A stretch of DNA of 63,655 bases, counting the filler, from Collodictyon triciliatum (Eukaryota), in assembly GCA_043381765.1 (NCBI GenBank). It is 6 parts of 6 records of this genome, joined end to end, with 100 filler letters (N's around TTAATTAATTAA, not from the genome) between each part and the next. Parts side by side here need not be neighbours in the genome. Positions count along the whole stretch, not along the records: positions 1 to 17,475 come from JBHJMP010002151.1; positions 17,576 to 30,092 come from JBHJMP010002153.1; positions 30,193 to 42,678 come from JBHJMP010002156.1; positions 42,779 to 55,266 come from JBHJMP010002157.1; positions 55,367 to 59,306 come from JBHJMP010002180.1; positions 59,407 to 63,655 come from JBHJMP010002204.1. The stretch is one strand, 5' to 3'. The notes beneath the pieces are model-generated. The model was not told the origin of the DNA. It saw only the letters and a list, made by a program, of their open reading frames with translations, and did no database searches. Positions 381 through 63,243 of the stretch are shown one piece after another. Position 1 is the first letter of the stretch. Every line of letters begins with the position of its first letter. The translations under genes were made by a program, and so were the position numbers.

Positions 381-3300
381 ATGTCAACCTGCAACCATAT
401 TCGAAATGCTTCGTTGCTCCCCTTCCCGCAACACAACACCATCGTCCACAAAGAGGAATGCACTCTCTGCTTCGAGTCCATAGTGGGCATTCTCTACCAA
501 TATTGTTCTTTTATTTATTTATTTATTTATTTATTTATTTATTTGTGTCTTCATTCTTGTTTATATAAAAAGATTAGTAATTTTTTTTCTTGTCAACTTA
601 GTATTCTCCTGAAGGTGTTGATGTTTGCCTGACCTGCTGGAATGGAGGTTGCCGTGGAGAATCGCATCACTCTGCTCTTCACCATACAAAGTCCAATCAT
701 CCCCTCGTTCTCAACATTCGCCGCGTCATCCGTCCAGTAAAATCCACAATATAATTAATTTTTTTATCCATACTATCCATCTAGTTTTCAATATGCTGAT
801 ACGAACCATCATCTCCACAGCGACGAAAAAAATAATAATCATACCTCTAACCGAGAAAATTCCTTACCGAAATATCTAAGTAGAACAATAATGACTAAGG
901 GGCTCATTTGACTAAATGATATACGCATATTTGCAAAGGACCCAGAGGAAGGCCAGCCTCAAAAAATAACCAAAGTTGCAATCGGCATGGAAGGGGGTCT
1001 GAAATTGCCCGACGAGAAATACGATGAGTTCTTTTCTGTTCACTGTTTCGCCTGCAAAGTCGATATCGCCACCGATGAAACTCTGCAGGTTTATATATTA
1101 TACAAATCCTTGGTATCACATGAAATTAATGCTGTAAAATAGTGACACAATGATATAGTATGGTGTCGTTGGATACAAACCCGATTCTGGTGTGCATATT
1201 CTTTCGTTCTATAAAGCATACATAACAATATGAGGGTTTGAAATTGTGTATTGCACCTCTTTGTAGCTCCAAAATGCAGTTGATCAAGTCATCAAAGCAT
1301 CCTCTGCTACAAAGAAGGAGGAGCTCAAGGCCTGGGAAAATCTTCGTTCTCCCTGTGAACACACACTTATGCTGAATCAAGTGACTGGCACCACCGTCCC
1401 AAGTGATTTCAATCACTATTCCTTCTTACAACTGAACCCAAACCTACACAGCCATCTATATTGCTTCTCCCCTCTATTGATAATCATTTATATGTGATTT
1501 CTCTACTTAAATTGCTGATTAATGATTTTTTTTTTTTTTTGCTGTTTTATAATTTGCAATAGGTTTAGAAAAGTGCAACAGTTGCGAAGTGTCTGACCAT
1601 CTGTGGCTTTGCCTGGTATGTGGAAATCTGGGGTGCAGCCGAAAAAACTTTGATGGAACTGGCGGAAACGGCCACGCACTTCAACACTCAGCCGCGACTG
1701 GACACACGCTTGTCGTTAAAATCGGAACAATCACTCCGGAAGGCTCTGCTGGTATTCATGATAGAAAATGAATACACGAATATGTAGTTTTTGAGATTTA
1801 CGATTTCAGTGTATGTTTCATTCTATGTCTTTTGAAATCCATGGTTATATATTGATTGATATTTGCTCATAGTAACGGACTTTTTCTTTTCTCTTTTTTC
1901 TTTTCTCTTTTTTCTTTTCTCTTTTTTCTTTTCTCTTTTTTCTTTTCCTTCCCTTTTCTTTCCCTTTTCTTTCCCTTTTCTCTCTTCTCTCTCCTCTCTT
2001 CTCTATTCTCTTTTCTTGACATATATGATACTGTTAGATGTTCATTGTTATAGTTGTGACGACGAGGTGGTCGACCCAAATCTATCAGTACATTTGTCGA
2101 ATTTTGGAATTGATATGGGCACACAGCAAAAGACTGCCACCACTATGGCTGAAATGGTACCCATTATTTTGGTTATATTTTCTCTTTCTCCTTTATTCTC
2201 ATCTGGACTCACAAAGTTTTTTTTTTTTTAGTATCACTGTAATGATATAGATACTACAAATATGATATCATAGGAATTGGAGCGCAATCTCACTTGGAAG
2301 TTCAACATGAAAACTGATGATGGGGTCGACTTCGAGCCGATTTACGGTCCAGGATACACAGGCCTTGCAAACTTGGGAAACTCGTATGTACTGATTCATT
2401 TTTCTGTCTTTTGCTTAATTTTTCTTCCATTTTTCATTTTTAAGATGTACTCCGTTCTCTTGTGCATCAAATTGTTATTATTTTGTGTTGTTTTATCATT
2501 TTTTTTAATCATCACCATTTTTAATTTTACTTTTTGAAGTTGCTATATGGCCTCGGTTATCCAAGCTGTTATGTCCATTAAGGAAGTTCGAGAAAGGTTT
2601 GTACCTTTTTTTTTCTTTTTTTTTTTTTTTTTTTTTTTTTTTTTTTTTTTTTTTTTTTTTTTTTTTTTTTTTTTTTTTTTTTTTTTTTTTTTTTTGTAGT
2701 TTGTAGTTCGGAATACATAAACTGTACTTTGATTCGAATAGAGGGGAAAAAAGAATACATAAATTGTAAAAATTATAATGTGTGATATATCTTTCGATTA
2801 CCCTAGATACTATTCTCGAGCTGCAGATCATTTTGCAGCTTGTCGTGGACCTCATGCGACATGTTTTGACTGCCAGGTGCAGTATTTTGTATAATAATAC
2901 ATAATGAACTAAAAAAATTCATGATTTTTCCCTAATTAAAATTCTATGAGAATAATTCATAACAGAGTTTGTCATTGTTTTATTTAAACAACTCATATGC
3001 CACTCTGTCTGCTGAATCCCGATTTTTCTCCCTGGAAAAATAGATGCATAAAATTGCAGTGGGTATGTGGAATGGAAACCACTCCTTTCCAGCCACTGAC
3101 CCGCAAGCAAGAAAAAAGGTTTAAAAAAATATATTATTTGTTCTTTATTTGGTTCGCCTCGCTTAGAATATGTCAGAAGTATACGTGGTTTACATACTAT
3201 CAACTACGAAACAGGTTGGCATCAAACCTCTTATGTTCAAATCCCTGATAGCGGGAAATCACCGTGAATTTTCCTCCATGAGACAACAAGTGCCTTTTTA

Positions 3301-62981: not shown

Positions 62982-63243
62982 TCTTTTCTTTTCCTTTATT
63001 CGATTCATAGTGCAGCGAGGTTATGCCATACAAAGGGGCGAGATAGGTTCGCATGGTAGAGAGCAAACGCGAGTAGGACAAGACACTACTATGGAGAGGC
63101 TAGCACTGGGAAGTAATCAGTGATAGCGAGTTAGTCAGGTGGGCGTCCCAACTGGTTGATTGGCTGTGTGGGTAGCAGGGGTTGGATATGTTGTGGGAGA
63201 TATCGCACGACACATTCCTACATATATAATCGTTTGCGGTCAG
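62982..63243 (-). mobile_element. 5'-truncated copy of the same LINE, including the 3' UTR and A-rich tail
   Basis: 63105-63243 is the reverse complement of about 61651-61790. It continues through a 3' UTR to ATAACCTCGCTGCACTATGAATCGAATAAAGGAAAAGAAAAG. Confidence 0.88.

Follow-up and report, generated by a model that had tools for sequence, protein, structure and literature searches.

The 5'-truncated tails of long interspersed nuclear elements (LINEs) that are flanked by target-site duplications (TSDs) belong to textbook knowledge. Here we describe eight such tails, each only 25-44 nt long, in a DNA stretch of 63,655 nt from Collodictyon triciliatum (GenBank assembly GCA_043381765.1; six records joined by filler, henceforth called the window); very probably, each goes back to an insertion event of its own, in which target-primed reverse transcription (TPRT) copied the outermost 3' end of one LINE family, with synthesis ending at preferred points. 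All counts of these inserts come from this one ~64-kb window and one 529-nt metagenome locus. Among the systems with which they can be compared, the stringent-type LINEs (eel UnaL2 and similar elements) recognise a stem-loop at the 3' terminus, and the Chlamys element carries an enzyme of the GIY-YIG class of Penelope-like elements (PLEs). For human L1, 76 of 99 de novo insertions are described as 5' truncated, with microhomology at the 5' junctions and a median length of 712 bp (PMC11702581). New insertions of the Penelope-like Chlamys of Chlamydomonas reinhardtii are portrayed as 'very short' by 5' truncation, all intronic, with a median of 128 bp, and targeted to (C)n microsatellites (PMC9977147). 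In Lepidoptera, truncated 3' ends of RTE elements are said to have formerly been mistaken for short interspersed nuclear elements (SINEs) or microsatellite families (PMC2887409), and a poly(T)-only insertion in human NF1 was interpreted by its reporters as a severely truncated Alu, L1, or pseudogene (PMC3219598).

The C. triciliatum inserts share with human L1 the A tail, the variable TSD, the 5' truncation, and the microhomology or extra bases at the 5' join; the endonuclease, the reverse transcriptase (RT), and the zf-RVT domain of an L1-like second open reading frame (ORF2) are likewise seen in distant relatives of the element. Unlike L1 with its far longer median, 8 of the 10 copies of the family in the window measure 25-44 nt and have discrete 5' ends, their tails comprise only 4-10 nt in the younger copies, and no TT/AAAA-like motif is found at seven nick sites. 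With Chlamys, as far as its description goes, the element has in common that very short 5'-truncated insertions are made by a protist retroelement; it differs by a LINE-type C-terminus with zf-RVT and by inserts three to five times shorter. In contrast to the lepidopteran RTE tails as they are presented in that report, the inserts studied here stop short of the coding region. The extreme truncation to almost the tail alone is also a trait of the NF1 insertion as published, which was a single event of unknown source, whereas the inserts of the window recur, and both their source and their 5' ends are defined. Short tails and initiation near the end of the 3' untranslated region (UTR) resemble the stringent-type LINEs and suggest recognition of the terminal sequence rather than of a long poly(A); unlike for those LINEs, no significant terminal stem-loop is predicted for the present family. 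In the open-access literature searched with our chosen words, we found no LINE family described in which inserts of less than 50 nt are the main class. The copies of the window differ from the known truncated LINE tails in that most are shorter than 45 nt, that their 5' ends are discrete, and that their tails are very short.

Short inserts and their target-site duplications

The 18-nt motif CTTTGAATCGAATAAAGG, followed by a short A run, has nine matches in the window when up to three mismatches are allowed (2727+, 3700+, 4114-, 13517+, 17337-, 27661-, 32246+, 47025+, and 62993-). Dinucleotide shuffles yielded 0.16 matches on average and two at most, and none of 100 shuffles reached nine. The original prediction, which placed the motif in both orientations at eight sites and at a LINE tail copy, was thus recovered at all nine positions. 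Every copy is followed by GG to GGGGG and then by an A-rich run. One of the nine forms the 3' terminus of a ~260-nt LINE tail, and the other eight are the 25-44-nt inserts, which we call stubs and designate by the position of their motif. A BLAST search of the window with the 326-nt LINE tail returned the same eight short matches, together with an ORF2 remnant (141 nt, 87% identity) and a diverged tail at 59579-59755. Each stub holds 18-32 nt of unique LINE sequence, so that the insert length of about 10-40 nt assumed previously has to be corrected to 25-44 nt with the tail. The stubs of the first 14 kb (2727, 3700, 4114, and 13517) have three to five G between motif and A run and one or two motif mismatches; the others (17337, 27661, 32246, and 47025), the LINE copy, and the metagenome copy L008 have GG at this place, and the motif is perfect in three of these four stubs and carries two mismatches in 32246. 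This split suggests either two subfamilies, one older and one younger, or slippage at initiation.

Three stubs possess strong TSDs. Stub 2727 (2711-2768, plus strand) is a 26-nt insert (2727-2752) that begins at the first motif base, has two motif mismatches and the tail GGAAAAAA, and lies between repeats at 2711-2726 and 2753-2768 (16 bp with one mismatch; 11 bp exact). Stub 27661 (27638-27695, minus strand) consists of an A, the perfect motif, and A7 (26 nt, 27654-27679); its start is at -1, when positions are counted from the first motif base as 0 with negative values leading further into the LINE 3'UTR, and its TSD occupies 27680-27695 and 27638-27653 (16 bp, one mismatch). In stub 47025 (47010-47063, plus strand), the 28-nt insert (47023-47050) is made up of TT, the perfect motif (start 0), and AAAAAATA, and is bordered by an exact 13-bp repeat (47010-47022 and 47051-47063). 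The TSDs of two further stubs are weaker. Stub 3700 (3679-3731, plus strand) is a 39-nt insert (3686-3724) starting at -14 with ATAACCTCGCTGCG, followed by the motif and GGAAAAA, between exact 7-bp copies of CTCCATA (3679-3685 and 3725-3731), and stub 13517 (13502-13573, plus strand) is a 44-nt insert (13516-13559) with a start at -1/0, one motif mismatch, a decayed A/G tail of 25 nt, and a marginal TSD of 14 bp with two mismatches (13502-13515 and 13560-13573).

The remaining three stubs are less informative. The older stub 4114 (4100-4151, minus strand; insert of ~42 nt, motif at 4114-4131 with one mismatch, G5A4 tail) is similar to the LINE to at least -8, and its candidate TSD, ATCCA (5 bp), is at chance level, as is the candidate AATCAT (6 bp) of stub 32246 (32237-32273, plus strand; 25-nt insert 32243-32267, start -1 to -3, two motif mismatches, A4). 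Stub 17337 (17331-17369, minus strand; 39-nt insert, start about -14, perfect motif, A6) resides within (AAT)n, where a TSD is uninformative. On the tail side of this stub, an (AAAAT)-like repeat at 17290-17475 may derive from growth of the A tail.

When 2000 random sites were searched by identical rules, 59 of them (3%, mostly in tandem repeats) were flanked by an exact repeat of at least 10 bp, compared with 3 of 8 stubs. A wider scan, in which tails of up to 40 nt and two mismatches were allowed and 600 random sites served as control, gave a score of at least 13 for 4 of 8 stubs and for 13 of the 600 random sites (2.2%); one of these four stubs is 17337, which we discounted due to its microsatellite. 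The TSD of stub 13517 scores 8, a value reached by 5.7% of the random sites, and that of stub 3700 scores 7, which 14% of them attain. The four clear TSDs of 11, 7, 16, and 13 bp listed in the original prediction were all reproduced (2727, 3700, 27661, and 47025), although the 7-bp one is not significant alone. The short or decayed TSDs that it ascribed to the copies at 4104, 13517, and 32245 stand for 4114 and 32246, where 5-6 bp amount to chance; at 13517 the TSD is the marginal one of 14 bp with two mismatches, behind a decayed tail. Hence the signature of TPRT, 5' truncation combined with TSDs of variable length, is secure at three stubs; two others show it plausibly, and at the last three it cannot be read. 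The origin by TPRT claimed in the original prediction is borne out by TSDs in excess of chance, by the A tails, by insertion in both orientations, and by identity with the terminus of a zf-RVT element.

The same evidence bears on the proposal that the stubs are deletion remnants of longer LINE insertions or a recurrent host signal. The motif contains AATAAA 2 nt before the A run, and the poor TSDs of the older copies 4114, 13517, and 32246 would agree with such an origin. We nevertheless hold it to be very improbable: in the three best cases (2727, 27661, and 47025), no more than 0-2 nt separate the 5' side of the insert from the TSD, a border that deletions would have had to hit precisely on all three occasions. 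Beyond the motif, the copies agree with the LINE 3'UTR over up to 14 more bases, and they occur in both orientations; neither conservation over 18 nt nor flanking duplications of their own are expected of a poly(A) signal.

Standard repeat finders would probably miss inserts of 25-44 nt. If the window is typical, with one stub per 8 kb, the genome would contain thousands of such retrotransposition scars, which would be invisible to similarity-based repeat annotation and yet alter introns, UTRs, and promoters, with an AATAAA in each.

The source element and its relatives

The complete 3' end of the source LINE is preserved in a 5'-truncated copy at 62982-63250 (minus strand), which comprises the end of ORF2, a complete 3'UTR of ~95 nt, the motif with one mismatch, and an A-rich tail ending in AAAAGAAAAGAA. 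A second member of the family, a frameshifted remnant of the ORF2 C-terminal region at 60962-61797 (plus strand), ends before the stop codon and 3'UTR. The upstream part of the first copy (62982-63243) is 87% identical over 141 nt to 61651-61791 of this remnant, in which the reading frame 61187-61549 (plus strand) matches the Pfam domain zf-RVT (E 1.5e-7; 32.4 bits against a cutoff of 27.5). The homology of the LINE copy to a zf-RVT ORF2 remnant, as originally proposed, is thereby confirmed.

We searched 241 million metagenome records for exact matches to the 18-mer motif. One of the 35 matches, L008, is a real element copy; it is laid out as an ORF2 C-terminus of 107 codons, a stop codon, a 3'UTR of ~95 nt, the motif, and A10. 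The LINE copy at 62982-63250 aligns with L008 over 113 nt, which include the last ORF2 codons, the entire 3'UTR, and the motif. This alignment, which continues through the motif to the A-rich tail, upholds the earlier view that the motif is the 3' terminus of the LINE, and both copies have the A-rich tail and lack the terminal repeats, as expected for a LINE. The other 34 metagenome matches, which are devoid of an A tail or LINE context, were judged to be chance, and so were the 10 matches in prokaryote genome contigs, all of them bacterial; viral contigs contained none.

At the protein level, the ORF2 remnant is 57% identical to P0001 (345 aa), which itself carries zf-RVT (E 4.3e-8), and the 107 aa of L008 are 46% identical to this protein. 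A word-based search with the remnant returned only P0001 and P0002 (222 aa), and one with P0001 as the query returned none. An exhaustive profile search with P0001 yielded 16 relatives. The five closest (E <=1e-30) are fragments of 161-253 aa, and four distant long ones (P0010, P0012, P0013, and P0016; 1226-1339 aa) all combine Exo_endo_phos, RVT_1, and zf-RVT. The P0001-like region corresponds to the C-terminal end of these long proteins, as seen in the alignment of P0001 with P0010, and the closest carrier of RVT_1 is 27% identical. Since the ORF2 C-terminus of L008 and of the window copies matches the end of proteins with this domain order, the source is a LINE, probably of L1/Tx1-like architecture, and its enzyme probably unites an apurinic/apyrimidinic endonuclease (APE)-type endonuclease with an RT. 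The endonuclease domain itself is seen in the four distant relatives only; neither the window nor L008 includes the N-terminal part of the element.

We also considered the stubs as SINEs and rejected this idea: neither a tRNA nor an Rfam family at gathering score is found anywhere in the window, and the 18-32 unique nt of the stubs are all shared with the LINE 3'UTR. Two more diverged LINE tails lie nearby on the minus strand. The one at 59577-59755 is 70% identical to the main family over 184 nt and ends in CACTTAATCGAATTAAG (59577-59598), a perfect 6-bp hairpin with a CGA loop; the other, at 62482-62660, ends in GGTTCAATCGAAAAAAA. ATCGAA near the end is common to all three LINE tails, and the window contains no stubs of these two diverged families (ends 62482-62502 and 59577-59598). 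The 18-nt motif of the main family was examined as a terminal hairpin and rejected, given that the fold leaves it unpaired (z 0.1-1.0); a perfect 6-bp stem is found only in the diverged tail at 59577-59598. About 30 nt past the end of the homology of the ORF2 remnant (~61797), the minus strand reads GGGTTAGGTTAGGTTA (61829-61844, ~2.6 TTAGG units), which may have arisen by chance or be a vestige of a telomere-like repeat.

Discrete 5' ends and their possible causes

The 5' ends of the stubs fall into two classes, with five at 0/-1 and two at -14; the eighth reaches at least -8. Under uniform truncation, at least five of eight ends in any 2-nt bin are expected with p = 0.0012 over 33 nt, 0.0003 over 46 nt, and 0.0001 over 96 nt. 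It had been suggested that insertions are routinely aborted after about 25-40 nt; the two discrete classes are at variance with a gradual abort of this kind. Suffix scans (7-12 nt plus AAAA) revealed no clear stub with fewer than 18 unique bases in the window, and the reversed-sequence control gave 0-1 matches. An ambiguous short-suffix site at 24779, AATAAAGGAAAA behind an A12 run, was not accepted as a clear stub. Detection bias does not explain the clustered 5' ends, because the same search finds stubs of any length from 18 nt upward and shorter ones were sought.

We envisage that the endonuclease of the element would nick the target DNA and that reverse transcription would be primed where the 3'UTR of the LINE RNA meets its short A tail. 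Synthesis, or the template itself, would end at 18-19 or ~32 nt of unique sequence, and the short cDNA would then be joined to the far side of the staggered break, giving a 25-44-nt insert with a variable TSD of ~7-16 bp. Priming probably takes place close to the boundary of UTR and A tail, because the tails have only 4-10 A, and the 5' join would be achieved through short microhomology or added bases. At 2727 and 27661, CTGTA stands ahead of the motif where the element copies have CTGCA or CTACA, and the TSD ends in TGT or TGTA at both sites, which fits a microhomology join. At 47025 and 32246, two to three bases at the join match neither side (TT at 47023-47024; CT at 32243-32244).

The discrete ends could also be set by the template. 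According to this proposal, the LINE transcript is cut behind two C residues, those at -2 and -15, each within CpA, by a host nuclease or by RNA silencing, or its 5'-3' decay is halted by a bound protein, and the stubs are copies of the resulting short RNAs inserted by TPRT. The improbable clustering of the ends, the lack of clear stubs with fewer than 18 unique bases, and the fact that both hot spots open with an A preceded by C would all be accommodated. The extra bases TT and CT would correspond to RT run-off with base addition, and the addition of bases at template ends is a property of non-LTR RTs. The coincidence with CpA is weak with eight copies, and pause sites of the RT could produce identical ends; we therefore rate such cutting as unlikely, and with the same reserve the notion that a protected, A-tailed 3' fragment is copied to its end and integrated. 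The broader proposition that the integration machinery of the LINE is mostly fed a nuclease-trimmed 3' fragment of its own RNA, composed of the last 18-19 or ~32 nt and a short A tail and perhaps representing the footprint protected by bound ORF2 protein, appears to us quite doubtful. Were it true, most integrations would be harmless stubs of ~26 or ~39 nt, and the retrotransposon would be under a control by template destruction that leaves a countable genomic record.

Another proposal has the RT stall at a small hairpin of the 3'UTR; its predicted stem of 6 bp (GUAUGGC...GCUACAC) would have its 3' base at the 0/-1 ends, and the first base of the loop would lie at -14. For the L008 tail, this stem is obtained as the fold of minimum energy (-4.0 kcal/mol), it is kept in the window copy (-2.7 kcal/mol), and its 3' end coincides with base C1 of the motif. 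The fold is weak and does not surpass shuffled sequence, with a local z of -1.7 (14 of 200 shuffles fold as well) and values of 0.36 in a 55-nt context and 0.21 in the window copy, and a stall at -14 would fall after the stem has already been opened and is thus left unexplained. Stalling at this hairpin is accordingly highly unlikely in our view.

Several observations weigh against separate TPRT insertions of one LINE family as the origin of the stubs. The TSDs of 4114, 32246, and 3700 are matched by 14-35% of random sites, and that of 17337 is masked by its microsatellite. The seven readable sites share no nick-site motif, and L1-like TT/AAAA targeting, the hallmark of the strict L1 clade, is not seen among them; the junctions ahead of their TSDs read G/G, T/C, G/A, A/G, C/A, T/A, and T/T, and most lack an A-rich TSD start, in what is a small sample. 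No empty-site allele was seen in the contigs of four sequencing runs (X1, X2, X3, and X4) over positions 1-12200. When 110 reading frames of the window were scanned against Pfam, zf-RVT was detected and no RT domain (RVT_1), because the LINE copies of the window are 5' truncated; nor was a close full-length relative found, the five closest being the short fragments noted above, and the word-based searches gave no protein with an RT domain. Every number rests on a single 64-kb window. Provided that the stubs are indeed separate TPRT products, their discrete 5' ends would offer a natural read-out of the earliest TPRT steps, be it the transition of initiation into elongation or the form of the template that is used, which are masked in L1 by much longer products.

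Transcripts of relatives, gene context, and other features

The contigs of the four sequencing runs were compared with positions 1-12200 of the window only. X1 and X2 derive from two organisms close to that of the window (19 of 59 and 31 of 68 contigs, respectively, are at least 99% alike) and represent spliced RNA, as indicated by 15 listed joints with GT..AG or CT..AC ends that skip 99-285 nt; introns of the host span ~100-290 nt. Contigs of both runs pile up on the stub at 3686-3724, where the summed word depth at 3719 amounts to 252 (X1) and 203 (X2) versus ~6-11 for neighbouring exon contigs, contig depth being a poor measure of expression. One contig of each run extends upstream into the LINE 3'UTR (...CCCCTTTGTATGGCATAA...), and downstream of the LINE tail three X1 and two X2 contigs enter unlike sequences. 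The RNA of the two relatives therefore contains the LINE tail in several contexts. Both runs lack RNA contigs over 1-3663 and over the flanks of stubs 2727, 3700, and 4114. In the metagenome run X4 ('DNA?'), a 273-nt contig over 3641-3911 with nine differences carries stub 3700 at the same locus, and this insertion must hence be older than ~3% divergence.

Stub 27661 is located just 5' of a COX5B-like reading frame (27052-27663) on the same strand, for which the nearest solved structure is a plant entry; we read this as no more than a sign that the host is not obviously animal or fungal. Stubs 13517 and 47025 lie 8-10 nt from the hexamers GTATGT and GTGTGT, putative splice donors, and stubs 17337 and 32246 have AT-rich and repeat-rich surroundings. 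Taking the splice-donor-like hexamers at 13575-13580, 47001-47006, 8366-8371, and ~27700-27705 together, three or four short inserts would be placed 8-30 nt inside putative introns. RNA supports such a donor-adjacent position for the insert at 8274-8358 alone, and a rough hand estimate of the trend was not significant.

The latter insert (plus strand), which we term family B, is unrelated to the LINE stubs. It consists of 51 nt (8291-8341; AGCCAACATC...GAAGAATA8) within an exact 17-bp TSD, ATCAAACATTATCAAGT, and is a single copy in the window. This A-tailed insert hints that the ultra-short regime extends beyond one family. It is the most piled-up place in the runs, with a summed depth of 160 (X1) and 242 (X2) in its bin, and is present in X4 and X3 too. 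Eight X1 and seven X2 contigs have loose ends before 8291, which suggests that the full unit comprises only ~60 nt. Exons with RNA coverage, which belong to a gene on the minus strand, lie on both sides of family B, and the insert stands 13 nt from ACTCAC (8366-8371; the reverse complement of GTGAGT); it is thus very likely antisense and within an intron. In X2, a single RNA contig links the end of the LINE-tail stub (3724) to 8301 of family B across 18 other letters; therefore, both short elements stand side by side elsewhere in the genome of that relative. A candidate for a third short insert (15192-15252, plus strand) measures 37 nt, ends in ACAAAATAA, and is flanked by the exact 12-bp repeat GATTAATTTTCT, which may be chance.

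As to the remainder of the window, the N runs (44 N, 12 bases, 44 N) at 17476-17575, 30093-30192, 42679-42778, 55267-55366, and 59307-59406 adjoin microsatellites and are the filler between records; a gap of 626 N spans 29045-29670, and a repeat occupies 12230-12337. Long intron-free reading frames extend over 21139-24654, 36927-39845, and 39641-42328 (all plus strand), the third overlapping the end of the second in another frame. Two of these frames, of 1171 and 972 codons, encode WD40-repeat proteins with up to 20 repeats, and one contains nine Ephrin_rec_like repeats.

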